Source of the DNA: an uncultured virus (IMG/VR IMGVR_UViG_3300003629_000002)
Lineage: Duplodnaviria > Heunggongvirae > Uroviricota > Caudoviricetes
Reading direction: 5' to 3' (one strand)
Virus record (IMG/VR): IMGVR_UViG_3300003629_000002
Length of the DNA: 64,000 bases
Part shown: piece by piece, positions 3,722 through 39,235 of the stretch
Layout: every line of letters starts with the position of its first letter
Position numbering within the stretch: position 1 is the stretch's first letter
Notes under the pieces: generated by a model
What the model was told of the DNA's origin: nothing
The model's database searches: none
What the model saw: the letters and a program-made list of their open reading frames with translations, nothing else
Position numbers and translations under genes: made by a program

Positions 3722-4456
3722 ATGAACGTATGTATGATAGAGTGCCCTACTTGTGGCGAGGAAAAGAAGCATATAGGTAAACATTGGAGATTCTGCACAT
3801 ACCCATCGCTATCTCTTGGAAAAAGAGAATTGATAGAAGGTATGGTTCTTGGAGATGGGTCTGTTCACAATACTCGAACCAATAACTTCTTTACTGCTAA
3901 TATGACAAATAAGAAGTTTTTAGAATGGTTAGATGATAGTCTTGGATTATTTTCAAATGGGGTGAAACTTAAGGCAACTGGTGAAGAACTTGCTGAAAAG
4001 AATAAATCTAATGGACTAATTGATGTTGTAAATCCAGATGAATATAGAGATTCTTATATTCTGCAATCAAAAAGACACCCATACTTCAATGGGCTGAGAA
4101 ATATATATTATAATAATAAAGGAAAACATTTCCCAAATAATTTGAAACTTACGAAGAATATGGCAAAAATGTGGTATGTTTCTGATGGTTCTTTGATGTG
4201 GGGAGATAAATCTGGAAATGCAGGATTAAGAATAGGTGTTCGGTCACAAATGGATAGAGAGGAATACCTAATATCTTTATTTAATAGCATTGGATTCGAT
4301 ATTAAACTTAATGGATGGAATTTACAGATGGGGAATAAAGAAGCAGAAAGATTTCTTGATTTTCTTGGAGAACCTGTACCGGGGTTCGAGTATAAGTGGG
4401 AAAATAAAAATAATATTGAATACGAAAGACTTAAGATAGAGGCGTACCAATACTGA
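3722..4456 (+). mobile_element. Free-standing LAGLIDADG-like homing endonuclease
   Basis: LIEGMVLGDGSV and MWYVSDGS motifs, N-terminal CPTCG..HW..C; AT-rich and basic; paralogue of 11028-11735. Confidence 0.8.
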
Positions 4457-4479: not shown

Positions 4480-5004
4480 ATGTGGCTCGACGCAGACCTG
4501 AAACAAGCGGCACGGAATCACGCGACTAAGCATCAGACCAAGTTAATCTTGGAGGCTACTCAGATGGCCTGCTCCGCGCTTCATATGAACGGACTCGCAG
4601 AAATTTCGCCATATCAAAAGACGCATACCGGGCATCCGATGACGAGATGGGCCGCTGAGTCATTCGATAATTGGCTTCTGTTGCGAGACTATGCGAGCGC
4701 CCTGCACGCAGTCAGATACGGCTACTCATATGCAGATTTGGCAGAAATGTCCAGCGAGCGGCGCAAAGAGTTAGACGATGCCGACGTTATTCACAAGAGT
4801 ATGCGTAAATTTTCCGAGATTCCTGAGCGTCCTGTGGGACTCGTCCTTCCAAATATCGGCGTCACGGCTCGTCCGAAGTGCTTTGGTTCCTTTGAGCCGA
4901 GTAGCCCGTTGCTGTCGGTAGAGGAAGCGTACCGCGAATATTACCTTTCAGAGAAAGAGCCACAGGACTGGTTCGAGTGGAGTGAGGTTCCAGAATGGCA
5001 ATGA
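4480..5004 (+). CDS. Pyrimidine dimer DNA glycosylase / endonuclease V-like protein
   Basis: KH..KLILEATQM, YQKTHTGHPMTRWA and VEEAYREYY motifs. Confidence 0.75.
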   Translation: MWLDADLKQAARNHATKHQTKLILEATQMACSALHMNGLAEISPYQKTHTGHPMTRWAAESFDNWLLLRDYASALHAVRYGYSYADLAEMSSERRKELDDADVIHKSMRKFSEIPERPVGLVLPNIGVTARPKCFGSFEPSSPLLSVEEAYREYYLSEKEPQDWFEWSEVPEWQ

Positions 5005-7193: not shown

Positions 7194-7844
7194 ATGGAGA
7201 AAGTAGAGCGTATCAATCGCGTGAAAAATACATTGGATATGGAGGAACTATATCGGAAACTTCCTGAAGTTGGTACTATTCTTGACCCGGAATTGCAAGA
7301 TATTACAGAGCAGACATTTCTTACTGGCTGTCCTGACCATTTCTGGATTCGCCCGAGTTCCTCGACTGGGAAGTATCATTCTGAAGATGAGACAGGCAAG
7401 TTCGGCAATTGGCTTCACACGAAGCGTGTATTTGTAACATATATGATTCTTAGCCGCTCTTATTTAGAGCAGGGACTCATTTCGGAATTTGACAGAGAGG
7501 CTGGTAAGAGCGCCGCCTTGCTTCACGATATGCTCAAGTATGGCTGGCCGTCAGAGGGTCGTGAGCATACCTCAAATCGTCACGATGTTATCGGGAGCGA
7601 CGTAGCCCGCGTCCTCGGCAAAGCACCAGAGGAAGTCCATCAGGCGATTCACGCACACAACGGAGCGTGGGCCGAGGGGAAGAACCCCGAGACTAACTAC
7701 GAGCAGATTCTTCACTTATCGGATTACGTCGCGTCGAAACCAATTTTGGGAAGTCCGGCTGTCTGGAATCCTGCTGAAGAACTCGAAGAAGCCTTTCCTG
7801 ACCTTCGCACCATCGACGATGACACACTTGAAGGACTGCTCTAA
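7194..7844 (+). CDS. HD-domain phosphohydrolase
   Basis: PSSSTGKYH, HT, AALLHDMLK, H, AHNG, SD motifs. Confidence 0.85.
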   Translation: MEKVERINRVKNTLDMEELYRKLPEVGTILDPELQDITEQTFLTGCPDHFWIRPSSSTGKYHSEDETGKFGNWLHTKRVFVTYMILSRSYLEQGLISEFDREAGKSAALLHDMLKYGWPSEGREHTSNRHDVIGSDVARVLGKAPEEVHQAIHAHNGAWAEGKNPETNYEQILHLSDYVASKPILGSPAVWNPAEELEEAFPDLRTIDDDTLEGLL

Positions 7845-7883: not shown

Positions 7884-7988
7884 ATGAGATTTACTTGTAA
7901 CGTTGGCGAATGTCCGTACAGCACAACTCTCGCAGAAAATATCGGCCTACATCTTGCAGAGGAGCATCCTGAAGAAGTTGAACTATGA
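7884..7988 (+). CDS. 34-aa C2H2 zinc-finger microprotein
   Basis: MRFTCNVGECPY...HLAEEH; follows a TATA box and overlaps the next start. Confidence 0.6.
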   Translation: MRFTCNVGECPYSTTLAENIGLHLAEEHPEEVEL

Positions 7989-8350
7989 ATGTTGCAATTG
8001 TCGGCTCTCGCTCGCTTGAGGGGCGGAGAAGCGATGTTCGAGATGCTATTTTTCGAAGCCCGTGGCTCGCTGAAGGAGAACCATCCGGCGTTGACACAAT
8101 TATCAGCGGCGGTGCTGATGGTGTCGATACGTATGCCGAGCAGGTCGCTGATGAGTTGGCCCTCGATACTCGAATCATCGAGCCAGACTGGGAGTCCTAC
8201 GGGCCTGCGGCTGGACCAAAACGGAATACGAAGATTATCGAAGAAGCAGACGCCGTAATCGTCATATGGGATGGCGCTTCTAACGGCACGGCTGACTCGT
8301 TGCGAAAGGCGATTGATATGGGCAAGACAATTTACGCCGAGCAACTCTAA
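7985..8350 (+). CDS. SLOG family protein (DUF2493/YspA-like)
   Basis: VAIVGSR, ISGGADGVD, AAGPKRN, WDGASNGT. Confidence 0.85.
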   Translation: MNVAIVGSRSLEGRRSDVRDAIFRSPWLAEGEPSGVDTIISGGADGVDTYAEQVADELALDTRIIEPDWESYGPAAGPKRNTKIIEEADAVIVIWDGASNGTADSLRKAIDMGKTIYAEQL

Positions 8351-8388: not shown

Positions 8389-9777
8389 ATGAAACTCTAC
8401 GGCGAATACAACGAGGCGACGATTCATACGGAGGCTGAACAGGTTGACGCTTCAGCGATGGAGCAGATTTCCGAAATGGTCAATCATCCCGCGTTCGAGG
8501 GAGACTCGGACGTGTCGATTATGCCTGACTTTCATTGGGGCGCAGGTGCAGTAATCGGATTTACGATGCCCGTAAAAGAGCGTGTCGTTCCGAATACCAT
8601 CGGCGTTGACATTGGTTGCGGAATGTTCGCAGTCAATCTTGGCGATATTGAGTTTGACTCACTTGAGTCGCTCGACTCAGCGGTGCGCTCGCGGATTCCG
8701 ACAGGCTTTGATGTCCACTCGCGGAATGACTATCATATGATTAACGATTTCCCGTGGCAAGCCTGCGAGGATAAGTGGCACTCGTTTGCTGAGAGTACCT
8801 CGTTTGCGCTGGAAAATGAAACGCAGTACCCTCGTGAGACGTACTTCGAGAATCTGTGCAAGCGTGTCGGCTACGATATGGGACGCGCAATTAACAGTAT
8901 CGGCACGCTTGGCGGCGGGAATCACTTCATCGAGTTTGGCCGTGATTCGGAGAATCACGTTTGGTGCATCATCCACTCCGGCTCTCGCGGAATCGGTGCA
9001 GAGATTGCTTCCTATTGGCAGGACCGTGCGACTGAAGCGATGAACGAGCGTGCGATGGAGGGAGATATTCCTGACTCTATCGAGCCGTATCTCTCGGATA
9101 ACTGGAAACCGAAGGCTGACAAGATTCGCGCCAACTTTGAGGGAGAGGACATTCAGGAAAAGTTCAATGAATTGTCACAATTCATTCAGTCCACGAAACA
9201 GGATGAACAGAACCGGAACACGGACCTTGACTATCTCGAAGGAGACGAGGCGCACGGATATATTCGGGATATGATATTCGCACAGACCTATGCCAGCGTC
9301 TCTCGAAAGCAGATGGCTATTGCTGTGCTGGATGCTGTGCGTTCCCTGCAAGACGAGCCTGTCCCCGAAGACGAGGCTCCCGCGTGGTGGAAGGACTCCA
9401 TCGAGTCCGTTCATAATTACATCGACTTCGAGGATGCGACCATTCGCAAAGGAGCCTGTCGCGCACACGCCGATGAGCGGCTCGTTGTTCCGCTTAATAT
9501 GAAGTACGGCACTCTGCTTTGTAAAGGCAAAGGACGCGCTGACTGGAACAATTCAAGCGCACACGGCGCTGGTCGTGCAATGAGCCGGACTGCGGCTCAC
9601 GACAAGTTCACCGACGACGACTTCGAGGAACAGACTGAAGGAGTCTATATGTCGAAGAAACCGATGGACGAAATTCCGGGTGCATATAAGGATGCGTCCT
9701 CCATCGAGTCAGCCTTGGGTGAATCTGTCGAGGTAATCGACCGTGTGATTCCGTTCCTCTCAATCAAGGCGGAGTAA
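8389..9777 (+). CDS. rtcB: RNA-splicing/repair ligase RtcB
   Basis: MPDFHWG, GVDIGCG, GTLGGGNHF, HSGSRG, HN, RKGA, SSAHGAGRAMSR, DEIPGAYK. Confidence 0.97.
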   Translation: MKLYGEYNEATIHTEAEQVDASAMEQISEMVNHPAFEGDSDVSIMPDFHWGAGAVIGFTMPVKERVVPNTIGVDIGCGMFAVNLGDIEFDSLESLDSAVRSRIPTGFDVHSRNDYHMINDFPWQACEDKWHSFAESTSFALENETQYPRETYFENLCKRVGYDMGRAINSIGTLGGGNHFIEFGRDSENHVWCIIHSGSRGIGAEIASYWQDRATEAMNERAMEGDIPDSIEPYLSDNWKPKADKIRANFEGEDIQEKFNELSQFIQSTKQDEQNRNTDLDYLEGDEAHGYIRDMIFAQTYASVSRKQMAIAVLDAVRSLQDEPVPEDEAPAWWKDSIESVHNYIDFEDATIRKGACRAHADERLVVPLNMKYGTLLCKGKGRADWNNSSAHGAGRAMSRTAAHDKFTDDDFEEQTEGVYMSKKPMDEIPGAYKDASSIESALGESVEVIDRVIPFLSIKAE

Positions 9778-10447: not shown

Positions 10448-10579
10448 AGGCCCGTGGCCGAATGGTTTAAGGCGCTATATTCCGTCTTTCAAAATTTGGT
10501 TCGCGGAAGCGAAACGATTGAAAGGCTTACTTCACACCTGATGAGTGAGAGATTGCTGGTTCGAATCCAGTCGGGCCTA
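10448..10579 (+). ncRNA. tRNA-like RNA with a 58-nt structured insert at the D/anticodon junction (unpermuted YrlA-like, or tRNA-Ile(GAT) with a non-canonical intron)
   Basis: Acceptor AGGCCCG/CGGGCCT, D arm, T arm GCTGG-TTCGAAT-CCAGT, loop CTGATGA; insert GTCTTTCAA/TTGAAAGGC followed by TTACTTCA. Confidence 0.7.
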
Positions 10580-11027: not shown

Positions 11028-11735
11028 ATGTATAATTCTTGCGATTCGTATAATACCTGTAAGTCCTGTGGTAAGGATTTTAAGAAGATTTCTTTACATT
11101 GGGCAAGTTCTGATTGTAGGTATCCTAAATTGGATAAAGATACAGAGAGTGTTATTAAGGGGTTGCTTGCAGGTGATGCAACTATAGGCAAGGATGGAAG
11201 ATTATCTGTATATACAACTAATCCAATTTTTGCAGAATTTATATACAGACAGTTAATATCTATAGTTCCAGTAACAGTAAGTATTAGAGATGCAGATAGT
11301 AATGAATTAATGAAAAGAGAACTTTTTGAATTAACATTGCCTAAACATAAGTTTACTAAGAAATTAAGGGATGATTGGTATAATCCAAAGAAAATACCTA
11401 AGAATACGGTTGTGGATAAATTATTTACTAAGTATTGGTATGTTTGTGATGGAAATTTAAATAGTAAATATGAGGCATCTATCACAACATCTTCCAAAAA
11501 TATTGAATTTGTAGAAAAATCATTTAATCAATTGCCATTTGAGTATAAAATTAAAAATATCGGCACAACTGAGTTAAGTAATAATGATAGATACAGAATA
11601 TATATTAGTAGTCGGGAAAATGTTGAGAAATTTCTGAATTACCTCGGGGAACCTGTACCCGGATTTGAATACAAGTGGGAAATAGACGGTAATAAGAGAA
11701 AATCTATGAAGCAAGATGTGTACCAAAAGATTTAA
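11028..11735 (+). mobile_element. Free-standing LAGLIDADG-like homing endonuclease
   Basis: VIKGLLAGDAT and YWYVCDGN motifs; LGEPVPGFEYKWE shared with 3722-4456; AT-rich. Confidence 0.8.
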
Positions 11736-14936: not shown

Positions 14937-15614
14937 ATGGGACTACTTAATAAATTCATTCGAGTGGTGAAGGCGAAGGCGAACAACTTACTCAATAACG
15001 CGGAAGACCCTATCGAGCAACTGGAACTCGCATATGACGAGTTGGAGGACAAGCGCGACAATGTTCGTTCCTCGATTGTGGACGTTATCGCGCAACGAAA
15101 GCGCCTTGAGAGCAGGGTGTCGAAGTTGCAAGATGAAGTGCAGGAGCATAATCGACAGTCTCGCGCTCTTGTCAACGAGGACGAGGACGACCTTGCACGA
15201 GTAGAGTTAGAGAAGAAGAAATCGAAGATGAAGGCAATCGAGAAACTTCAGGGTCAGATTACGCAACTTGACGACCTTGAGCAAGATATGCGCGACCAAC
15301 ACGACGAAATCGAGAGCCGCCTCGATGAACTTGAGACTGAGAAGGAAGTCCTCAAGGCTCGGTACGAGGGCGCTGAAGCGATTGAGGCAGTCAACGAGAG
15401 CCTCTCTGAAGGCATTGGTGACTTCTCAATTGAGGATGCGGTGTCGGATGTTCGGGAAGACGTAGAACAAATGGAGGCTCGTGCAGAGGCTATTCAGGAA
15501 TTTGACGATAGCCAGCAGTCTCACGAGGACCGTGTTGAGGAGATTGCGACTGATGCCGAGGTTGAATCGGAGTTGGAGAGCCTGCGAGGTGAGGCGGAGG
15601 CTGAGGTCGCGTGA
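14937..15614 (+). CDS. pspA: PspA/IM30 family protein
   Basis: MGLLNKFIRVVKAKANNLLNNAEDP, coiled coil, EDDLAR, EVESELESLR. Confidence 0.9.
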   Translation: MGLLNKFIRVVKAKANNLLNNAEDPIEQLELAYDELEDKRDNVRSSIVDVIAQRKRLESRVSKLQDEVQEHNRQSRALVNEDEDDLARVELEKKKSKMKAIEKLQGQITQLDDLEQDMRDQHDEIESRLDELETEKEVLKARYEGAEAIEAVNESLSEGIGDFSIEDAVSDVREDVEQMEARAEAIQEFDDSQQSHEDRVEEIATDAEVESELESLRGEAEAEVA

Positions 15615-15888: not shown

Positions 15889-16710
15889 ATGGGAATTAAC
15901 TTCAACGACACGAAAGAGACAGTCGCAGAACGAACCGAGAAGGACAACTATGAGGGAGGAACGGCCTATGAGCCTGACTCGCCCGAGGTTGCGCTGACGA
16001 AGAACGTCCTGACGAATCTGCTTGAAGACTCGTTCTACGAGTCGGCAGAGGACTCGATGGATGCCGTCAAGCGTGAGTTCGAACGAGTTGCAGACTCTAA
16101 TCCAGAGTTTGTCCTGAAGTTGGCTACGTATGCGCGACAGTCTGAGAATCTTCGGCAAGTCCCTCAACTGTTGCTCGTACTCGCGGCCAACGACGCTCGG
16201 ACGAAGGGATACGTTCGTAGTTACGCTGAGTCGATTATTCAGCGTGCAGATGAACCCCTCGAAGTTCTTGCGATGCAGGTTTCCCTGTACGGCAAGTCCA
16301 TCCCGAATCCGCTTGAGAAAGGTATCGAGGATGCACTTCATAATTTCAACGAGTATCAATTCGCAAAGTGGGACCGTCCTTCGAGAGAATGGCAGTACCG
16401 CGACTTGCTGAACTTAGTCCACCCGCGTCCTCGGGATGATGAGAGAGATGCAATCTTTGAGCAAATTGCTCTCGGAGAACTGGACTCTCATCCCGATGTA
16501 GATTCGCTCAAGCAGTCCGATACGTGGGAGGATGAAATGTCTGATGCCGGTAAAGAGGACCGGGATAAGGCAGAGGTTTGGCGCGAACAACTCCGCGAAA
16601 ATGATGAAGGCTACTCGATGCCTATCTTTGCACGGGTTCGTAACGTTCGAAATATGCTTGATGAAGGACTCTCCGGTGAGGAAATCTTCAATTACGATAT
16701 TGAAGAATGA
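15889..16710 (+). CDS. Ro60/TROVE-domain protein, N-terminal part
   Basis: NYEGGTAY, DSFYES, KLATYAR, IQRADEP, FNEYQFAKW, DLLNLVHPRP, TWE, ARVRNVRN. Confidence 0.9.
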   Translation: MGINFNDTKETVAERTEKDNYEGGTAYEPDSPEVALTKNVLTNLLEDSFYESAEDSMDAVKREFERVADSNPEFVLKLATYARQSENLRQVPQLLLVLAANDARTKGYVRSYAESIIQRADEPLEVLAMQVSLYGKSIPNPLEKGIEDALHNFNEYQFAKWDRPSREWQYRDLLNLVHPRPRDDERDAIFEQIALGELDSHPDVDSLKQSDTWEDEMSDAGKEDRDKAEVWREQLRENDEGYSMPIFARVRNVRNMLDEGLSGEEIFNYDIEE

Positions 16711-17411
16711 GCAATTATATTTCAGATAAAGAATTAATTGATGATATAAGGTTAGTTTCATCTGAAATGGGAGAAGTTCCTTCAAGACGCCAGTATAATG
16801 AGCGCGGAAATTATTCTTATAACACGCATTGTCGGAGGTTCGGCTCTTGGAATAGTGCGCTTGAAAAGTCCGTTGGCTCCATAAATAAATATCAGAATAT
16901 TTCTGAAGAAGAATTATATAGCGAAATAGATAGATTATACGAAGAATTAGGCCGACCGCCAATGCAAGAAGATATGAAAAGAATTGGCGAATATAGTCCT
17001 GATACATACCACTATAACTTAGATGGGTGGAGTCAAGCAGTTATAGATGCAGGATATGAACCTATTACAAGAGGTTTTAAAAGTGGAAAGGAGCATCCTG
17101 ATTGGAAAGGTGGCTCTATTGACTATTATGGGCCTAATTGGAGTTCGGTTAGAAAAGAGATTCTTGAAAGGGATAGCAATTGTTGCAGGATATGCTCAGA
17201 ATCAGAGGAGCGACTTTGCGTCCATCATATTAATCCGCGCTCAGAATTTGTTAAAGATGGTGAATACAATTACGAAAAAGCAAACAAGAAGGAAAATCTT
17301 ATAACGCTGTGTGATTCTTGCCATATGAAGTTTGAGGGAAAATTCGCTAACAGTAGCCATACGGAGTTCGAGAATGAAGCGAAAGATTTAAGTAGTACCA
17401 AAACGAAATAA
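16707..17411 (+). mobile_element. HNH homing endonuclease with two N-terminal HNH-associated repeats, inserted in the Ro60 gene
   Basis: RRFGSWNSAL repeat, WKGG, LERD..CRIC, VHHI, NLITLCDSCH; AT-rich. Confidence 0.9.
17380..17395 (+). promoter_or_regulatory. Viral promoter embedded in the HNH 3' end, upstream of the Ro60 C-terminal half
   Basis: cgaaagatttaagtag at leaderless spacing from ATG 17417. Confidence 0.7.
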
Positions 17412-17416
17412 GTAAT

Positions 17417-18157
17417 ATGAAAGATAACAATATTTTCGGAGATACGTCCGAACGAGTTGTACGAAATAGTGGCCTATATCCTTTTAGATATTATCAGGCT
17501 TATAAGGCTATTAAAGAATCACCTGATACACCAAATGATAAGAGGGTATTAGAATGGCTCGAAAACGCAATGCGCGTTGCAACAGAGAATCTGCCGGACG
17601 TATTCGAGAATACGTTTACAGCAGTTGACGTGTCTGGTTCGATGCGTCACGCTGTCTCCGGTGATTCGGAACTCACTTGCAAGGAGATTGCCACGCTGTT
17701 CGGTGCGATGATGCTTGAGCGCGACTCGGATGTAGGCGTGTTTGCAAGCAACTTCGCTGAGGTAAACGCTGACCCGCGCAATCCACTTGTCACCAATGCG
17801 GAGAAGTTACAAGGTTCGCGTGTCGGCGGCTCGACGAATGGCTGGAAGGTGCTTCGTGGGCTGAGAAAAGAGAACCGCTCTTACGACAGGGTGGTAGTCT
17901 TCACGGATATGCAACTCTGGAACGACTCTCCGTACCAGAACTCCTCGTTCAAGGACGAGTGGGATGCCTACAAGCAACAGAATCCTGATGCAAGCCTATA
18001 TCTGATTGACCTTCAGCATTATGGCGACCTCGTTACGCCAGAGGGGGCGCAGGATGTATATAATATCTCCGGCTGGTCTGAGAAGGTTCTCGACTTCATC
18101 GAGGCCATTGAGAATGTCGATGGGATGATTCAAGAGATTGAATCGGTAGAGCCGTAA
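17417..18157 (+). CDS. Ro60/TROVE protein C-terminal part with vWA domain
   Basis: SGLYPFRYYQAY, AVDVSGSM (MIDAS), GGSTNG, VVVFTDMQ, ISGWSEKV. Confidence 0.9.
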   Translation: MKDNNIFGDTSERVVRNSGLYPFRYYQAYKAIKESPDTPNDKRVLEWLENAMRVATENLPDVFENTFTAVDVSGSMRHAVSGDSELTCKEIATLFGAMMLERDSDVGVFASNFAEVNADPRNPLVTNAEKLQGSRVGGSTNGWKVLRGLRKENRSYDRVVVFTDMQLWNDSPYQNSSFKDEWDAYKQQNPDASLYLIDLQHYGDLVTPEGAQDVYNISGWSEKVLDFIEAIENVDGMIQEIESVEP

Positions 18158-19000: not shown

Positions 19001-19885
19001 ATGCGAGACAAAATTAGAAATACAATTTACGAGATTGAGACGAGCGAGAATATCCACGCAATCTCTTGTCGCTCGTTTGGGAGTCATATGATGAACCTCG
19101 ACTCGGACGAGTCAGACTACGATGCGTTTCTCGTCTTCGCGCAAAGTGCGCCGGATTATGCAACTATCGGCGGCTACGAGGATACGCTGACCATTAAGCG
19201 AGGCGAGATTGACTTCCAATGCTGGAACGTCAAAAAGTTTGGCGAACTACTGAATGACTCAAATCCCACGACTCTTGAGTTTCTGAACTCGCCAGTTACG
19301 TACTTCGAGAATCCCGAATTTATCAGCACGCTGGATTCGTTGCGGGAAATGGCGAACGAGAACTTCAAGCCGATTGCGCTCTACTACCATTACCGTAGTA
19401 TGGCGGAGTCGAACTATATGAAGTACCTCAAACCGTGCATCTACGATACGGAGGGAGAGCGATACCCTATCGAGAACGAGGATGACCACTACTGGCATAC
19501 CGGCATTGGTGAGATTCCGAAAGACTCGGATGAGTACGAGGCTGGCAACTTGAAGCAGACTGTCAAGCGTAATCTCTACATTATGCGAGCCATCCTTCAC
19601 GCGAAGCACATCCGCAAGACGCACGAGATGCCGACGATGAACTTCCCTGCATTCGTTGATTCACTCGATGAAGGTGACTTGGGGCTTACGCGAGCAGACA
19701 AGGATAGGCTGAAAAAGTGTATCCATCGAAAGCGTAACGCGAATGCGTATGAGGAAATCGGGAATCCGTTCGAGGATTTCATCGAGGCCGAGTTATCGCG
19801 TGAACTTGACCCGGAAAAACATCTCGACGGAGAGATGAATACTGAGCAGATTAACGAGTTCATCAAGAATGGTATTGTTCGCTGA
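19001..19885 (+). CDS. Pol-beta superfamily nucleotidyltransferase (RlaP/YcgL-like)
   Basis: GSHMMNL...SDYD, WNVKKF..LL..SNP..LEFL.SP, YHYRSMA. Confidence 0.85.
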   Translation: MRDKIRNTIYEIETSENIHAISCRSFGSHMMNLDSDESDYDAFLVFAQSAPDYATIGGYEDTLTIKRGEIDFQCWNVKKFGELLNDSNPTTLEFLNSPVTYFENPEFISTLDSLREMANENFKPIALYYHYRSMAESNYMKYLKPCIYDTEGERYPIENEDDHYWHTGIGEIPKDSDEYEAGNLKQTVKRNLYIMRAILHAKHIRKTHEMPTMNFPAFVDSLDEGDLGLTRADKDRLKKCIHRKRNANAYEEIGNPFEDFIEAELSRELDPEKHLDGEMNTEQINEFIKNGIVR

Positions 19886-26109: not shown

Positions 26110-26598
26110 ATGTCGGGTCGTATCAAAGAAGCCTGCGTATATTCGCTGAGTGACGACTACGACCCAAATCAAGCGACGTTGGATTCGTGGGGCGACCTAA
26201 TGGAGACAAAGATTGCTGTTGTGTCTCGCCCAAGCGATAAGATGCTTGAAGTAACTGATGAATGCTTCTCGGAACTTGGAATGCCAGAGAAGTATCTCAG
26301 CAGATTTTGGAAACGGCGCTCAGACTATCAACTAAATAGTGCAATTGATAATCCGCACAATCGCGCCTACGAGGATTTGTCGCTCGATACGAAATACATC
26401 GAGCATATTCGAAACTCCGCCGAGGCACAGCGTGCGCTCACGGAACTTGTTTCTCGGATTGAAAACGGGGAATGCATCACGCTCGTCTGTTTCGAAGAAG
26501 GGCACGAGCATTGCCATCGGCACGTTTTACTCGATATAATTGAAAAGAGAATCGAGAATAATTTTATTGCAACCGAGAGAGCCACCCCCGTTGAGTAA
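26110..26598 (+). CDS. DUF488-like protein
   Basis: ITLVCFE....CHRHVL motif. Confidence 0.65.
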   Translation: MSGRIKEACVYSLSDDYDPNQATLDSWGDLMETKIAVVSRPSDKMLEVTDECFSELGMPEKYLSRFWKRRSDYQLNSAIDNPHNRAYEDLSLDTKYIEHIRNSAEAQRALTELVSRIENGECITLVCFEEGHEHCHRHVLLDIIEKRIENNFIATERATPVE

Positions 26599-27051: not shown

Positions 27052-30000
27052 TCATAGTTCAGACTCCACGTAGTTCTCAGCGTCTTCGAGGAACTGCTCG
27101 ATGTCTTCCTCGGTCCATTCCGCATCGTCGTCCATCTCGATAAGAATCTCACGAGCCGCCTCCTGCTTCTTATCAAGATTATTGTCAACACGAGTCGTCA
27201 GCACTTGCTCATCACGAGAGCCGTCGCGGTAGAACGTCAGACCCTTAATCGTTTGGCCGAGTTCGTCTTCGTCAAGCGCGAGCATAAAGGCTTCGTGAAC
27301 GTCGTTCCGGGTTGCGTCATTCGGCGCATTGATTGTCTTACTGATACCGGAATCAACGAACTCCTGAAACGCTCTTTGCATCATCCCGTGTTCGCGTGAC
27401 GAGAGGTCGTTCGTTGTTACGAAGACCTTTGCAATATTTTCGGGAATATCGAGGTCGTCAACTCCGTCGAACTCGTTGTTTCGCATCTTTGTTTCAGCAT
27501 CTTCCTTGATGCTCTCCACATCGAGTCCGTTCGCCTCAAGCGTCTTGAGGAAGTAGTCGTCAAATTCGACGAGCATATCGCTTCCCTGAATGTCGTCTCC
27601 GACGTTCTTGAAGTTTGCGACGTTGTACGCAGGTTCACAACCGCCGGTCGTGTTACCAATCATTGAAGTTGTCCCGGTCGGAGCGATTGTCGTCGTATTG
27701 TGATTGCGAATCGGGAAGCCATCTTCCCAATCGTCAGCACTTTCGTAAGTATGCCCCTCGAACCACTCACGGTACTTCTGCGGGTCGGCGTACTTCGACT
27801 CGTCCCAGTAGTCGAACGAGCCGCGCTCTTGAGCGAGTTCGTGACTCATCTGGACAGACTCCTTATCAATGAAGCCCATCACGACACGGGCCGCCTGATA
27901 CGAGTTATCGCTTCCATACGGGATTCCCATCTGGTAGAGCATCTGCGCCCATCCCATAATCCCGAGGCCAATCTTTCGCTGACCCTTCACGCGCTCTGAG
28001 ATTTGTTCAAGCGGGAACTCGCTTTGGGTTACAACGTTATCGAGGAACCGAGTGCCGTGTCGGGTAATCATCTGCAACTGCTCCCAATCAACGTTCTCCT
28101 CGCAGTAGTCCGTTACTGCGTTCTTCTCGAACTGATAATCGTAATCGACAGTTTTCTTCCATTCCTCGAACGGAATAGAATCCGACTTCATCATCAGGCT
28201 CAGATTAACGTGCCCGAGGTTGCACGCCTCGAACGCGGAGAGCGGCTGTTCGGCGCATCCACGATTGACATAGCCTTCAGTAACCCACGTATCTGAACCA
28301 GAACAGTAGAGGTCAAAGACAGTTTCTTTTTCCTCAAGAACCTCAATAGATTCGACAGTTGCTTTCCACAGACCGCCGGTTAGCATAAAGTCAGTTCGTA
28401 GCGTTTCAAGACGTTCGCCTTTACTTGTGTGGTAATTTGACAGTCGAGTGTTTCGAACAAATGTGTCAGCAGACTCGCCAGCGATGTGAATATTGTAGAG
28501 AGTGTACGTCTCATCATTACCAATTTCACTTCCATCACCCCGAGTTCCGCCACGATTCTTTCTCTTGTCTTCGTAAATCCGAGCGTGCATACCCACATTG
28601 AGGGCAAGATTTCGGATGTTGTTAGCCAACTTTTCCGAAGACGTAGACCAGCGAATCTGAGGCCGGTTAGAAGACATACTAACACTACCATCAGTAGCCA
28701 ACATACCGTCAAGGAACCCTTGGACTCCCGCCCGAGTCTTAAATTCAGTCACATCCACACTTTTTTCGTAACTGTATTCGGGGTTGAGATTGTGGTCTTC
28801 AATGACTTTCTCTGCGTCTGCAATCCAAAGCTTGACCGACTTGTTTCGACCGCTGGTATCAAGCTCTCCGACATTGTAACCAGCATCCTCAAACAGTTCT
28901 CGGACGTTCTGATTGAATGTGGTATCATCTTCACTCGAACTAATTGAAAGTCGATTGTTCACATCAATTGTCTTCTGTGTGTATCCCCCATCTCCGGTGA
29001 GGATACCACGTCGGAGTTGATACTTGTAATCTTCTTCAGTCCCTTTACTCTCAAGCGTTGATGGTTCAAGTCGAATCTTATCACCCTCAGAAATATCTCG
29101 GAGAGGAGTGTTTTTATCCACACTCTTTTTCCCGTCAAGAACGTGGAAGCGATGGTCTTCTGTCGCCTTAACACTACCACCATCACTTAGATTGACTTGA
29201 TAGACCTCTTTATCCTCAAAGGTTAGAATCTCATCAACAGATTCGGTTCCATAAACAGTTGAAATTTTATTTCCTTCGCTAACGTTTTCGGCACGAATTA
29301 GTCCGTTAGGAGTGTTAACGAGCGTGTCGCCCGTGACGCACGGATTGGTCGCATTGATTGCATGTTGCGGGTACTCGTCTGCGTCGAAGGAATGCTTGCG
29401 GTTCGTCTCGTCGTAGTGGAACAGACCCGGCTCACCATTGCGCCACGCTCCGTCGATAATGAGGTCCCAAATGAAGCGAGCGGGAAGCGTCATTTCTTCG
29501 CCAACCTCAAGACTGAAGCGAGACTGGTCCCACTTTTCTGCGAGCGGAATCTTCTCGTCGGTGTCGTAATCAGGGTGTGCGACGATGGTATCAGCGTAGT
29601 CTCGCCACAGGTTCTCGTCTACAAGTTCCATCCCAACCTTATCCTCAGCATTCGCCTGCTGGAAGTCTTTCGGGTTGTCAGCGTACTCGGGAGAGTAGAA
29701 CTTCTTCGTTTCTTCGAGAACTGCCTGCGGCTCCGAGAAGTCGGACTGCGGGTCGTAGATTGCGTAGTCTTCGTCGTTGCGAACAGCCTCGATAAATTCA
29801 TCCGTGAGAGCGACAGAGATATTGAAGTTATCGAGGACACCCTCGACACGTTTTGCTGTAATGAATCGACCAATGTCGGCGTGGTCAATTCGCATAATAC
29901 CCATCTGTGCCCCTCGTCGCTTTCCTCCCTGCTTCACCGTTTCGCACGTCTCGTCGTAGAGACGCATAAACTGCATTGGACCGCTGGTTTCAGATTCGGT

Positions 30001-30483
30001 TGACCGAATGTACGCTCCCTTTGGCCGAAGATGACTGAAACTGTAGCCAACTCCGCCGCCACTCTTGAAAATCTGACCAGCGTGCTTCACCGTATCGAGA
30101 ATGGACTCTCGACCAAACTCGTCTTCCTCTGCCATCGAATCGCCCGGCTCAAGGACGAAGCAGGCCGAGAGTTGCTGAAGGCTCGCTCCTGCGTTCATTA
30201 GAGTCGGGCTGTTCGGCATAAACTGAAGCGTACTCATCATATGCTCGAACTCGTCGGCCCACATCTCCTGAGCCACTTCATCGCTTTCCGCACCAGCGAC
30301 GTTCTCTGCGACTCGATTGAATAGGTCTTCCGGGTCCTCACCTTCGAGGAGATACCGTGCTGGAAGAATATTGTGATATGCGTTTCCAGTCATTCGTTCC
30401 TTGACCGATTCAGTCTCGTCTACCGAGAGAATCGGCATCTCTACTTCTACTTCTTTCTCTGATGCTTGTGTTTGTTGAGTCAT
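27052..30483 (-). CDS. nrdJ: Adenosylcobalamin-dependent (class II) ribonucleotide reductase with intein
   Basis: PNSPTLMNAG, LSACFV, GGGVG, QGGKRRGA, NP/CAEQ, CNLG, TIAPTGT, ISKTIN, KGLTFYRDGSR. Confidence 0.95.
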   Translation of the reverse strand: MTQQTQASEKEVEVEMPILSVDETESVKERMTGNAYHNILPARYLLEGEDPEDLFNRVAENVAGAESDEVAQEMWADEFEHMMSTLQFMPNSPTLMNAGASLQQLSACFVLEPGDSMAEEDEFGRESILDTVKHAGQIFKSGGGVGYSFSHLRPKGAYIRSTESETSGPMQFMRLYDETCETVKQGGKRRGAQMGIMRIDHADIGRFITAKRVEGVLDNFNISVALTDEFIEAVRNDEDYAIYDPQSDFSEPQAVLEETKKFYSPEYADNPKDFQQANAEDKVGMELVDENLWRDYADTIVAHPDYDTDEKIPLAEKWDQSRFSLEVGEEMTLPARFIWDLIIDGAWRNGEPGLFHYDETNRKHSFDADEYPQHAINATNPCVTGDTLVNTPNGLIRAENVSEGNKISTVYGTESVDEILTFEDKEVYQVNLSDGGSVKATEDHRFHVLDGKKSVDKNTPLRDISEGDKIRLEPSTLESKGTEEDYKYQLRRGILTGDGGYTQKTIDVNNRLSISSSEDDTTFNQNVRELFEDAGYNVGELDTSGRNKSVKLWIADAEKVIEDHNLNPEYSYEKSVDVTEFKTRAGVQGFLDGMLATDGSVSMSSNRPQIRWSTSSEKLANNIRNLALNVGMHARIYEDKRKNRGGTRGDGSEIGNDETYTLYNIHIAGESADTFVRNTRLSNYHTSKGERLETLRTDFMLTGGLWKATVESIEVLEEKETVFDLYCSGSDTWVTEGYVNRGCAEQPLSAFEACNLGHVNLSLMMKSDSIPFEEWKKTVDYDYQFEKNAVTDYCEENVDWEQLQMITRHGTRFLDNVVTQSEFPLEQISERVKGQRKIGLGIMGWAQMLYQMGIPYGSDNSYQAARVVMGFIDKESVQMSHELAQERGSFDYWDESKYADPQKYREWFEGHTYESADDWEDGFPIRNHNTTTIAPTGTTSMIGNTTGGCEPAYNVANFKNVGDDIQGSDMLVEFDDYFLKTLEANGLDVESIKEDAETKMRNNEFDGVDDLDIPENIAKVFVTTNDLSSREHGMMQRAFQEFVDSGISKTINAPNDATRNDVHEAFMLALDEDELGQTIKGLTFYRDGSRDEQVLTTRVDNNLDKKQEAAREILIEMDDDAEWTEEDIEQFLEDAENYVESEL
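28258..29340 (-). mobile_element. 361-aa intein with LAGLIDADG endonuclease and atypical C-terminus (…YVNRG/C)
   Basis: Starts CVTGDT after ATNP; block B ATEDHRF; GILTGDG and FLDGMLATDG; VFDL; extein resumes CAEQPL. Confidence 0.9.
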
Positions 30484-30587
30484 TGTTATGTCACCGTCAA
30501 ATGCGAGAGCCATCCCTATGTGAATTACGATTCTCGCATCCAACTTCGGGATATTAGTGTATGCGTTCCGGGTACTTAAGCCTTTCG

Positions 30588-31943: not shown

Positions 31944-32016
31944 GGGCGATTGGCCGAATGGATAAGGCGCTGGTTTGCGGAACCAGAGATTGCGGGTTCG
32001 ATTCCTGCATTGCCCA
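31944..32016 (+). tRNA. tRNA-Arg(GCG)
   Basis: Cloverleaf, anticodon arm CTGGT-TTGCGGA-ACCAG. Confidence 0.9.
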
Positions 32017-32722
32017 CTCCTCCTCTCTTTGGTTGAGGGGATAACGCCGCCGAGTGGCGTGAATGCAAGTTCTCGGTAAATTGCGCGTCCATTTGCAAGA
32101 ATGGGCGGAAAGTAAGTTAAGGCTCGGTTTACATCGAGAGATGGTGTAGTCTTCGCTAACCACGAGGGCGGTATTAGCCAAGTACCGTATCGCAGACGGC
32201 TGGTGTCTGGCACAAAGACTTGGGACCTACAATGATACAGAAGGGAGATAAATCAGAAATGGCTGTCGCAAATGCGTTTACCCAATTTGGGACCGCAGTT
32301 TCGAAGCCGCTATCTGACAACCTCCCGTATGACTTCATTGTAGATTATAATGGCCTTCACAGAGTTCAGGTCAAAACTGCGCGGGAGCGTAGTGATAATA
32401 AGAACTCTATTATCGCAGACCTCACACGAAGCAGGCATAACTACTCTACTGGTCACAGTAAAGAGTATTATAGTGATGATGAGATTGACTTCTTCGCTAT
32501 TTATTGGCCGAAACGTGGGGAGGTATACTTGTTCGACTTTGACGAAGTTGGCAAGAACGCTGTAACTATTTGCGTAGGCGATGTTTATAACCCCAACCAG
32601 CAACGTGTTGGCGAGGATTATCTCCTTGAAGTACGGTTGGATTCATTAACACAGTCGTAAAAGGTCCGTCCCAACACTACGGGCGTAGTTTGACAGACTA
32701 CTGGTGGGCTGGTCTTCCACAC
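32017..32722 (+). ncRNA. Unknown multi-hairpin RNA (about 250 nt without insert) interrupted by an endonuclease-bearing putative intron
   Basis: Consecutive hairpins flank the ORF; pairing across it (GGACCT/AGGTCC, TGGTG/CACTA). Confidence 0.55.
32232..32660 (+). mobile_element. PD-(D/E)XK endonuclease (I-Ssp6803I / PDDEXK_5-like)
   Basis: KGDKSE, P....PYDFIVD, RVQVKT, Y...EIDFFAIY. Confidence 0.9.
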
Positions 32723-32781
32723 ATTCGTTTTCTAAATCGAAAGGTTTAAATAGTAGGGGCGCATTAGTAAGAGTACGAAGT

Positions 32782-32852
32782 GCCGAAGTGGTCTAAAAGT
32801 AAGATGCGTGCCTGTCACGCACGAGACTCGGGAGCATTACCCGGCTTCGGCG
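32782..32852 (+). tRNA. tRNA-Asp(GTC), atypical T loop
   Basis: CGTGC-CTGTCAC-GCACG; T loop AGCATTA. Confidence 0.8.
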
Positions 32853-32991
32853 TGGGCAATCTGACTTGCCCTTGACTGACGTGAGCCACACGGCAGGATT
32901 GACCAACCCTCGTTATAGGGAATCGTGGTGCATCGTCAGCGTACTGTGACGCCTCACGGTACGGGGGAGTATTCCCCTTTAATGACAGCGT

Positions 32992-33067
32992 GCTGGAGGA
33001 GCGCCCGATGGCGAGGTGTGCTTGGTTTTCACCCAAGAGGTCGTGGGTTCGATTCCCATCTCCAGTA
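32992..33067 (+). tRNA. tRNA-Glu(TTC)
   Basis: CTTGG-TTTTCAC-CCAAG; G at position 8. Confidence 0.85.
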
Positions 33068-33069
33068 TA

Positions 33070-33468
33070 ATGACGACAGAAACTAATAGAAAGGGTGACG
33101 TAGGAGAACTTCAAGTCGCTTCTACATTACTTGAGTTAGGTTACGTCGCATCCCGTCCAATGACGGAAACTGACTATGACCTAATTGTGGACCTCGGTGA
33201 TGACGGCATCAAACGGGTTCAAGTAAAAGTCTGTCGTTGGTCAGAAGATGACAACACGTATCGTGTAGGATTTGAGAAAACACACTACACATCAGACGGA
33301 GCCAACCGAAAACTATATCAAGATACAGATATAGACGCATACGCGGTATACAACCCTGATAGAAGTGAGGTATACTGGCTATGGTTTGGCGAAGCACCTA
33401 AATGGGGTGCTTCAAGAAGTGCTGATACGTGGCAAAAGGACTTGATTACAGAGAAGTTGGGTCGATAG
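33070..33468 (+). mobile_element. Free-standing PD-(D/E)XK endonuclease between tRNA genes
   Basis: KGDVGE, YDLIVD, RVQVK, Y...DIDAYAVY; stop codon lies inside tRNA-Phe. Confidence 0.9.
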
Positions 33469-33532
33469 GATAACTTGGGAATCCACCTGTTTGAAGAACA
33501 GGCGCATCTCGGTTCAAATCCGGGTCGGCCCA
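33459..33532 (+). tRNA. tRNA-Phe(GAA)
   Basis: CCTGT-TTGAAGA-ACAGG. Confidence 0.85.
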
Positions 33533-33535
33533 TAG

Positions 33536-33611
33536 GCTGATGGAGTTTCCGCTGGCGAGAAACGCTCGCTTCTCAGGCGAGAGGTCGTGGGTTCGATTCC
33601 TACCATCAGCA
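33536..33611 (+). tRNA. tRNA-Glu(CTC)
   Basis: CTCGC-TTCTCAG-GCGAG; G at position 8. Confidence 0.85.
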
Positions 33612-35253: not shown

Positions 35254-35737
35254 GTCGTGGTAGTTCAATTAGTAGAACGCCGTGCTGTTAAGGACATATG
35301 AACACAAAAGACAAAGGTGATTTGGCTGAAGTATCCGTTGTAAAACGGGTAAAGGAGTTAGGTTATACGGTATCAATTCCATTCGGTGATAATGCACCAT
35401 ATGACCTGATATACGATGATGGCCAATTACACAAAGTCCAAGTGAAATATGGTAGACTATCTGAAGGAAAAGTTAAAGCAAAACTTGAGCGGACACAAAG
35501 AAATCAAGGAAGACACGCTCATAAACCGTATGATTCGTCTGAAGTTGACGAATTTGCAATTTATTGTCCGGGGACAGATGAAGTTTACCGTATATCAGTA
35601 ACAGATGGCCAAAGACGGAAGTCTATCTTCGTGTTGAGGAAGCGAAGAAGGCTGATTCAAGTATACGTTGGGCATCTGAATATCGTTTATAGTCCGCAGA
35701 TACACGGAGGTTGGAGGTGCAAGTCCTTCCCGCGACG
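35254..35737 (+). tRNA. tRNA-Asn(GTT) with a 411-nt BHB intron (35291-35701) at position 37/38
   Basis: Exons 35254-35290 and 35702-35737 join into a cloverleaf; strict BHB motif. Confidence 0.92.
35298..35692 (+). pseudogene. Intron-encoded PD-(D/E)XK endonuclease with an apparent -1 frameshift near 35608
   Basis: KGDLAE, PFGDNAPYDLI, KVQVK, VDEFAIYCP; the -1 frame continues PKTEVYLRVEEAKKADSSIRWASEYRL* and stops at the intron stem. Confidence 0.85.
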
Positions 35738-35800
35738 TTCTTTTGCACAATTTTCTTTATCGAAAGATTTATATAGTATAAACACATACACTAATATACG

Positions 35801-39101: not shown

Positions 39102-39235
39102 GCGTCCGTGGCCCAATCAGGTACGGCACTCCGCTGATAAAAGAGATAATCAGATGAATATCCCAATATTAATTCGGCATCTGAGTATCACTTGCAGTAA
39201 CGGAGCGATTGTTGGTTCAAATCCAACCGGGCGCA
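39102..39235 (+). tRNA. tRNA-Ile(GAT) with a 60-nt intron (39140-39199) at position 37/38
   Basis: CTCCG-CTGATA|...|A-CGGAG; BHB with one A.G mismatch. Confidence 0.88.

Follow-up and report, generated by a model that had tools for sequence, protein, structure and literature searches.

A PD-(D/E)XK endonuclease gene in a hairpin loop of a conserved structured RNA from a relative of the archaeal virus HGTV-1

The locus and its relatives

In the 64,000-nucleotide stretch of viral DNA analysed here (IMG/VR record IMGVR_UViG_3300003629_000002; the whole stretch is hereafter called the window), a structured non-coding RNA lies at 32018-32733, between the genes for tRNA-Arg (31944-32017) and tRNA-Asp (32781-32853). 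It is about 280-300 nucleotides (nt) long once the open reading frame (ORF) that it contains is set aside. This ORF (32232-32660) encodes a PD-(D/E)XK endonuclease and fills the terminal loop of a peripheral hairpin of the RNA, H8. We think it probable that it is a homing-endonuclease gene that has lodged in this loop and is tolerated there, with the stem re-forming around it, the core of the RNA unaffected, and no splicing.

The source of the window is a salt-lake archaeal virus, a relative of Halogranum tailed virus HGTV-1. Positions 32733-33600 match HGTV-1 with 92.8% identity (blastn; two records, one virus), and the two have a common gene order of ribonucleotide reductase, dCTP deaminase, thymidylate kinase, tRNA-Arg(GCG) and a long tRNA cluster, with 32 tRNA genes called in the window by ARAGORN. 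Five members of the structured RNA were compared: those of the window and HGTV-1, and those of L125 (an IMG/VR contig without the ORF), L130 (a metagenome contig without the ORF) and L131 (a metagenome contig with an ORF, the same element lying on the IMG/VR contig behind L124, L129 and L132, of which L132 is letter-identical to L129). The last three were located via synteny with the thymidylate kinase gene and by pattern scans. Specific sequence patterns were found only in HGTV-1 and two other IMG/VR contigs and, in metagenomes, in L130 and L131. As a family finder, a 14-mer scan of IMG/VR was non-specific (120 loci, with the other motifs only in HGTV-1) and was abandoned; a viral locus (L136) and seven bacterial genome matches (L137-L143) were likewise rejected as chance pattern matches, with no match to the covariance model R1 described below.

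The features of the locus are as follows.

31944..32017, + strand: tRNA-Arg(GCG) gene (ARAGORN; Rfam tRNA, 65.5 bits), directly 5' of the structured RNA in all five members
32018..32222, + strand: 5' part of the RNA, helices H1-H7 (helix table of five homologues, alignments, no Rfam match)
32022-32040, + strand: H1 (helix table, five homologues)
32044-32060, + strand: H2 (helix table, five homologues)
32086-32107, + strand: H3 (helix table, five homologues)
32112..32214, + strand: conserved core domain (R1 score and covariation)
32132-32143, + strand: H4 (helix table, five homologues)
32151-32167, + strand: H5, loop CUAACCA (helix table, five homologues)
about 32169-32181, + strand: H6 (helix table and alignments)
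32185-32199, + strand: H7 (helix table, five homologues)
32220..32228, + strand: 5' strand of H8, TTG-GGACC-T (sequence, homologous stems, base-pair probabilities)
32232..32660, + strand: PD-(D/E)XK endonuclease ORF, 142 amino acids plus stop (Pfam PF11645, 2OST match, paralogues, GC content, motif comparison)
32662..32674, + strand: 3' strand of H8, A-GGTCC-GTCC-CAA (corresponds to HGTV-1 GTCCT-CGGCC-AA)
32685-32701, + strand: H9, 5 base pairs (bp) with a 7-nt loop (compensatory changes among window, HGTV-1 and L130)
32704-32720, + strand: H10 (compensatory changes among window, HGTV-1 and L130)
32728..32731, + strand: T-run after H10 (sequence; T-runs here in HGTV-1 and L130 too)
32737..32753, + strand: TCGAAAGGTTTAAATAG, promoter-like box 5' of tRNA-Asp (sequence)
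32781..32853, + strand: tRNA-Asp(GTC) gene (ARAGORN and Rfam), the next gene after the structured RNA

The H9-H10 segment (32685..32720) contains a conserved ACTGGTGGGCTGG that is unique in the window. The T-run is the likely transcript end and may serve as an archaeal oligo-T terminator, and the promoter-like TCGAAAGGTTTAAATAG recurs before other genes of these viruses.

The endonuclease gene and its family

The ORF matches the Pfam family PF11645 (PDDEXK_5) with E 6.1e-22 and 78.6 bits, well over the curated cut-off of 26.1, which agrees with its earlier recognition as a PD-(D/E)XK endonuclease gene. It also matches PDB entry 2OST (E 4.4e-7), there named 'Putative endonuclease', which we take to be I-Ssp6803I, a PD-(D/E)XK homing endonuclease encoded by the group I intron of Synechocystis tRNA-fMet. 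The GC content of the ORF is low, at about 0.43 compared with about 0.52 in its flanks. Two paralogues (34-37% protein identity) are present in the window, one free-standing between tRNA-Glu(UUC) and tRNA-Phe (33070-33465) and the other inside tRNA-Asn (35298-35690; 37% identical protein), 3 kb from the ORF. With ORF-less alleles in HGTV-1 and L130 and paralogues elsewhere, the gene shows the presence/absence polymorphism of a homing endonuclease. An IMG/VR search for relatives with the ORF as query returned no loci.

The same protein family is represented in the haloarchaeal tailed virus HSTV-4 by gp053 (tblastn E 2e-14), a free-standing gene starting 3 nt after tRNA-Asn, and its counterpart in the window is the paralogue at 33070-33465; the ORF at 32232-32660, unlike gp053, is enclosed by a stem inside an RNA gene and is not intergenic. 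With its stop codon the free-standing paralogue, the third PF11645 ORF, spans 33070-33468: it starts 2 nt after the end of tRNA-Glu(UUC) as called by ARAGORN (33068), and its stop codon falls within the first bases of tRNA-Phe (33458-33533), so that tRNA processing would yield an mRNA with almost no leader. One endonuclease family thus has three lodgings in a single tRNA cluster: an intron, an intergenic site and the loop of an RNA hairpin.

A conserved and covarying host RNA

In all five members the structured RNA begins right after tRNA-Arg(GCG), and the ORF-less sequence of HGTV-1, which has the same two tRNA genes on either side, aligns with both flanks of the window ORF (78% and 73% mean column identity). 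According to the helix table, in which the H7 row of L131 is placed wrongly, H1-H5 and H7 occur in 5/5 members with sequences that differ yet still pair, and H8-H10 occur in the window, HGTV-1 and L130. The core consists of a seven-pair closing stem enclosing four hairpins (H4-H7), and so forms a cloverleaf-like multi-branch junction; two of the core hairpins combine a stem of 5 bp with a loop of 7 nt, and a GNRA tetraloop closes H4 in three of the five members and H3 in L125.

When R1, a covariance model built on the 105-position core, is run against the five members, each gives a single match of 95-108 bits (102.6 bits and E 9.7e-27 in the window); the entire HGTV-1 record (143,855 nt) likewise contains one, and locus L123 and ten unrelated or pattern-only loci contain none. 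In the alignment of the five members fitted to R1, a procedure that is biased towards pairing, 12 of the 23 modelled pairs carry compensatory changes and 93% of 115 cells are paired. None of 500 shuffles reached the observed covariation, and sliding the structure by 1-3 columns reduced pairing from 93% to 36-50%. RNAalifold, run on a plain MAFFT alignment, found compensatory changes in 11/23 pairs. The element therefore has the conserved secondary structure and the compensatory changes of a structured non-coding RNA. Single-sequence minimum-free-energy folds are mutually discordant. No Rfam 15 family matches the element, at the gathering threshold or at E up to 10, in any of the five members (window, HGTV-1, L125, L130, L131).

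Searchable papers on HGTV-1 do not mention the structured RNA; in the accessible portions of PMC13532342 and PMC8651126, HGTV-1 tRNAs, one tRNA intron, RtcB and Rnl2 are treated, and neither this RNA nor its endonuclease ORFs appear. The comparison thus brings to light a conserved, covarying RNA of about 300 nt beside tRNA-Arg in HGTV-1-like viruses that is absent from Rfam.

The 3' end of the RNA varies. A T-run ends it in three members (window, HGTV-1 and L130), and in L125 and L131 the RNA runs straight into the next tRNA through a pseudoknot-like tail, without H8-H10. These short-form tails could fold as H-type pseudoknots, in L125 at 4861-4909 (CCUGA/UCAGG, with loop GGGAG pairing with CUCCC) and in L131 at 1549-1595 (CCGGU/ACCGG, with GGAGC pairing with GCUCC), and the pseudoknot covaries between the two. 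The H8 loop of HGTV-1 contains their motif CAAAA(C/G)CUCC as well. The RNA of the window further contains an internal repeat (32185-32211 and 32685-32713), in which a 5-bp stem with a 7-nt loop is followed by CUGGUGUCUGG in the first copy and CUGGUGGGCUGG in the second. All eight loops seen (five of H7, three of H9) read xU-N-R-C-R-G, and for this reason they resemble Val- or Ala-type anticodon loops. By eye, RNase P-like P4 pairing, a k-turn, C/D and H/ACA boxes and a resemblance to 5S RNA were sought and dismissed, none being conserved across the five sequences.

Contigs from DNA sequencing of relatives suggest that other alleles of the RNA exist, each being a weak hint: a contig of sequencing run X1 has 502 other letters in place of 32020-32131, contig ends in runs X1 and X2 diverge straight after 32212-32215 (the X2 tail resembling that of L131), and contigs with the ORF in runs X2 and X3 align from 32227 onwards only.

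The insertion site

Hairpin H8 is present with and without the ORF. It reads AGGAC-[AAAACTCCGCCGTAAAAG]-GTCCT in HGTV-1 (18-nt loop) and AGGG-[ACTTGTCGTAAAAG]-CCCT in L130 (14-nt loop), both lacking the ORF, and GGACC-[435 nt]-GGTCC in the window, where the ORF lies within the loop. The last ten bases of the loop, GTCGTAAAAG, are identical in the window and L130 and contain the stop codon of the ORF; this TAA belongs to a motif, CGTAAAAG, at the 3' end of the loop that is common to the window, HGTV-1 and L130. Since the 3' end of the H8 loop, stop codon included, is shared with an ORF-less homologue, the ORF fills a conserved terminal loop. The closing stem of the ORF is genuine, as ORF-less homologues form this GGAC/GTCC stem as well, with a short loop inside it.

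The 5' strand of H8 in the window has two pairing options, GGACC with GGTCC (32663-32667) or TTGGGAC with GTCCCAA (32668-32674). The TTG and CAA, earlier taken for bulges, correspond to TT and AA flanking the same stem in HGTV-1, and the 3'-strand bulge beside the stem is CGGCC in HGTV-1 and GTCC in the window; going by these two sequences, UUG can pair directly with CAA.

A second loop is occupied in L131, where a paralogous PF11645 ORF (E 2.4e-14) fills the loop of H3, which is 422 nt long compared with 4-6 nt in the other members. On the sequences compared, the H8 insertion of the window and the H3 insertion of L131 are two independent events, both in terminal loops.

Test for a bulge-helix-bulge intron

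The original prediction had placed the ORF in a relaxed bulge-helix-bulge (BHB) intron within a non-tRNA structured RNA; the structured RNA, being conserved, covarying and foreign to Rfam, stands, and the relaxed intron at 32222-32673 is not supported. According to this explanation the host splicing endonuclease would cut AGAC[UUG]GGACCU ... AGGUCC GUCC[CAA], removing 32222-32673 and joining ...AAGACUU to ACACUA.... All of the strings occur where they had been reported (GGACCT 32223-32228, AGGTCC 32662-32667, TTG 32220-32222, CAA 32672-32674, AGAC 32216-32219, GTCC 32668-32671, TGGTGT 32202-32207 and ACACTA 32674-32679), our BHB scan reproduced the 452-nt interval obtained by cutting at 32222-32673, and the inner GGAC/GUCC helix is the same as in the tRNA-Asn intron of the window. 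Also in its favour are the correct geometry of the 6 inner bp and the 3/4 central pairs, the location of the tRNA-Asn paralogue in a true BHB intron with that same inner helix, and the RtcB ligase encoded by the virus.

The scan evaluated an outer helix, a 4-bp central helix, 3-nt bulges and an inner helix. The UUG/CAA bulges have the geometry claimed for them, but the central helix AGAC/GUCC forms only 3/4 pairs (one A.C mismatch), and of the flanking helices, which should have at least 2 bp on both sides, the inner has 6 pairs and the outer 0, compared with an outer helix of 5 bp in the controls. Nor does the motif rise above chance: among 6-bp Watson-Crick inverted repeats 300-600 nt apart in the window, 856 of 5,539 (15.5%) have flanks at least as BHB-like. 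Around the ORF the scan gave 2,266 position pairs with at least 3/4 central pairs, 30 of which pass the display filter, the predicted motif included; no candidate in this set (2,266 candidates, 30 displayed) combines 4/4 central pairs with at least 3 bp in both flanking helices. The best 4/4 candidates at the L131 insertion have flanking helices of only 0/4 or 2/2 pairs.

The same scan recovers genuine introns. Its top match at the tRNA-Asn control is the intron 35291-35701 (4/4 central, 4 inner and 5 outer pairs), whose cuts restore a normal anticodon loop, and in HGTV-1 it is the annotated tRNA-Ala intron (4/4, 4 and 5). Among the best 8 of the 21 HGTV-1 candidates none brackets H8, which argues that H8 of HGTV-1 is not a mini-intron. 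Partition-function folding of 32180-32720 gives the helices of the predicted BHB a probability of 0.00 and the continuous stem TTGGGAC/GTCCCAA one of 0.28-0.39, and in the Asn pre-tRNA the BHB helices reach 0.99, 0.42 and 1.0. A true endonuclease-carrying BHB intron can thus be told apart from a look-alike within one virus. The tRNA-Asn(GTT) gene (35254-35740) carries this 411-nt canonical intron with inner GGAC/GUCC and an outer helix of 5 bp, its ORF (35298-35690) matches PF11645 with E 7.7e-32, and the tRNA-Asn of HGTV-1 is annotated as an intron-free gene of 73 nt.

ORF-less relatives had been expected to be joined at ...AAGACTT|ACACTA..., and a different junction had been named beforehand as counter-evidence; HGTV-1 and L130 instead keep the hairpin with a loop of 14-18 nt, and hence do not match the ligated junction, which would delete both H8 and CGTAAAAG. 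In PMC4090602, the endonucleases of Euryarchaeota are described as being of alpha4 or alpha2 type and strict for the BHB, relaxed forms going with crenarchaeal-type enzymes. With these objections, and with UUG and CAA possibly pairing mutually like UU and AA in HGTV-1, we regard excision at 32222-32673 as very unlikely. The evidence is better fitted by an alternative that the original prediction itself had offered, in which the ORF is looped out of a TTGGGAC/GTCCCAA stem and not spliced.

How the gene may have come to lie in the loop

We propose that the endonuclease would cut the ORF-less allele of a co-infecting relative in hairpin-coding, inverted-repeat DNA, and that repair would then copy the endonuclease gene into the cut site. 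As the gene would land in the terminal loop, the arms of H8 would still pair around it (GGACC/GGTCC, or TTGGGAC/GTCCCAA), and the conserved core would stay untouched by an insertion into this peripheral hairpin, making splicing unnecessary. A preference for symmetric targets, which I-Ssp6803I reportedly has, would account for the choice of hairpin sites. Group I introns likewise tolerate homing-endonuclease ORFs that loop out from their peripheral stems.

Several points weigh against this proposal. The homing of the ORF, its mode of translation and the absence of splicing are deduced from sequence, and a homologue of the ORF was not recovered from HGTV-1, an empty result that is weak by the nature of the search. 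No promoter-like box or Shine-Dalgarno-like sequence was seen by eye 5' of the ATG at 32232, leaving translation from the middle of the RNA unexplained, and a cut near the ATG would help. The sister ORF in the tRNA-Asn gene uses a true BHB intron, from which it follows that this endonuclease family can live in such introns. Folding of the whole RNA (32018-32740) favours neither of the two stems that could close the ORF (each 0.01 or less), and the comparison of H8-H10 draws on three sequences (window, HGTV-1 and L130). Finally, a BHB-like structure, GGAC|CUAC[AAU]GAU ... GUC|GUAA[AAG]GUCC, lies exactly at the ends of the ORF; it has 3/4 pairs in the central helix, 3 in the inner and 4 in the outer.

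This structure at the base of the loop is the starting point of a second splicing explanation, in which an imperfect BHB with H8 GGAC/GUCC as outer helix, CUAC/GUAA as central helix, bulges AAU/AAG and inner helix GAU/GUC would excise 32233-32662 (430 nt). The product would be a small hairpin, GGACC-UACAA-GGUCC, and circularisation of the excised RNA would restore the AUG at the point of closure. As with the Asn intron, each site falls within a few nt of a start or stop codon; cleavage near the ATG would account for translation in spite of the lack of a visible promoter; and the virus has an RtcB. By a rough count, about 4 of 13,650 scanned position pairs are this good, which puts the chance expectation within 6 nt of these ends at about 0.04, an estimate that is generous because the candidate was chosen after many had been viewed. 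Yet the central helix has a C.A mismatch, the inner helix is just 3 bp including a G.U, the cut falls inside the AUG, the product loses the CGTAAAAG common to ORF-less homologues, and the loop insertion of L131 has no comparable motif. We consider such an excision unlikely.

It is also conceivable, although in our judgement unlikely, that the ORF loop is nicked or removed by a nuclease without re-ligation, giving a two-piece RNA for which the intervening sequences of bacterial rRNA provide a precedent, or that the insertion disabled a dispensable H8-H10 domain. The variability of the region 3' of the core would suit this, with L125 and L131 lacking H8-H10 and having a pseudoknot-like tail and contig ends of runs X1 and X2 diverging right after 32212-32215 (X2 with an L131-like tail), as would the intact core domain of the window at 102.6 bits. 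Conversely, H9 and H10 keep compensatory pairing with HGTV-1 and L130, which suggests selection, and no nuclease site was identified.

If instead the host RNA were itself a self-splicing or ribozyme-type mobile element, endonuclease ORFs in its peripheral loops would be expected. ORFs do fill two distinct terminal loops, which recalls group I introns; H4 in 3/5 members and H3 in L125 end in a GNRA tetraloop; and the endonuclease family includes 2OST, presumably the group I intron enzyme I-Ssp6803I. However, the five members show no match to group I, group II or other Rfam 15 ribozyme models at E up to 10, covariance models of the group I P3-P9 core give no group I intron in them, the adjacent tRNA-Arg is whole (65.5 bits), and no gene is seen to be interrupted. 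We view a ribozyme identity as very improbable.

Comparison with known systems

Homing-endonuclease genes in genes for structured RNAs are known; a PD-(D/E)XK gene in the hairpin loops of an undescribed archaeal-virus RNA is new. Archaeal BHB introns with homing-endonuclease genes include the crenarchaeal 23S rRNA introns that encode I-DmoI and I-PorI and, in the window, the tRNA-Asn intron. The H8 insertion resembles them in that a helix surrounds an endonuclease ORF within the gene for a structured RNA, again in an archaeal setting, but it differs in having no canonical BHB (3/4 central pairs, no outer helix), in that the predicted junction does not occur in ORF-less homologues, and in an enzyme that is PD-(D/E)XK and not, as in introns of the I-DmoI and I-PorI type, LAGLIDADG. 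With I-Ssp6803I (2OST) the ORF shares its family (PF11645, with a direct sequence match to 2OST at E 4.4e-7) and a tie to tRNA-type genes and hairpin-coding DNA, and unlike that enzyme it has no detectable group I intron around it and belongs to an archaeal virus. Parallels also exist in the ORF-bearing intervening sequences within terminal loops of bacterial 23S rRNA and in homing-endonuclease ORFs looped out of group I intron hairpins at the periphery. As in the present RNA, a terminal loop gives way to a long insert, the stem and the rest of the fold persist, and the loop used varies between lineages; the difference is that the RNA studied here is neither an intron nor an rRNA of known kind.

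The role of the host RNA

The viral genes of the window include RtcB, Ro60 (TROVE and vWA domains), RlaP and DUF488. Because these viruses carry 30-plus tRNAs together with RtcB and Ro60, an RNA encoded within the tRNA operon offers a definite starting point for studying the handling or protection of translation RNAs by archaeal viruses. The setting recalls that of Y RNA and YrlA, given Ro60, RtcB and RlaP in the virus, Ro60 also in HGTV-1 (an intact frame of 511 amino acids), and a cloverleaf-like core. It departs from it in other respects: neither Y_RNA nor YrlA of Rfam matches the structured RNA in any of the five members, and Rfam gave no Y RNA in the vicinity of the Ro60 gene; no stem joining the 5' and 3' ends was found; and the RNA lies 14 kb from the Ro60 (TROVE) gene. 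In PMC4201824 the Ro60-binding motif is given as GNCGAAN0-1G. This motif, or GGUCCGA, was found only inside ORFs or at non-homologous places, with no conserved position among the members. An identity as Y RNA or YrlA was accordingly rejected on the missing Rfam match, the unconserved motif and the distance from Ro60.

A bolder idea would make the RNA a new class of viral tRNA-operon-linked, cloverleaf-like RNA, acting as a partner of Ro60, RtcB and RlaP (a counterpart of Y RNA) or as a tRNA decoy, with its loops serving as landing pads for PD-(D/E)XK genes and at least one ORF freed by a non-canonical BHB-like cut. As a whole we find this combination quite improbable; were such a BHB-like release true, the splicing machinery of haloarchaea would accept substrates outside tRNA and rRNA.

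Other observations in the window

Between 7194 and 26595 the window contains a set of genes of RNA-repair type: HD (7194-7841), SLOG/DprA-like (7985-8347), RtcB (8389-9774), PspA (14937-15611), Ro60, RlaP (19001-19882) and DUF488 (26110-26595). Two LAGLIDADG ORFs (3722-4453 and 11028-11732) are situated in and near this set. The Ro60 gene is apparently split into a TROVE ORF (15889-16707), an HNH ORF with homing-endonuclease repeats (16707-17408) and a vWA ORF (17417-18154). In HGTV-1, Ro60 is one open frame (511 amino acids). An inserted endonuclease, an intein-like layout or a divided gene might each account for the order seen in the window.

Two further tRNA-like loci escape ARAGORN. One, just 3' of RtcB (10448-10579; 42.7 bits with the Rfam tRNA model), keeps its acceptor, D and T arms intact and has, in place of the anticodon-arm region, 71 nt with a UGAUGA box; it is either an intron-bearing tRNA or a tRNA-like RNA. 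The other (39102-39235; 134 nt, Rfam tRNA, 47.6 bits) is probably another intron-containing tRNA. The ribonucleotide reductase ORF (27052-30543, 1163 amino acids) contains, by eye, a candidate intein-like insert.

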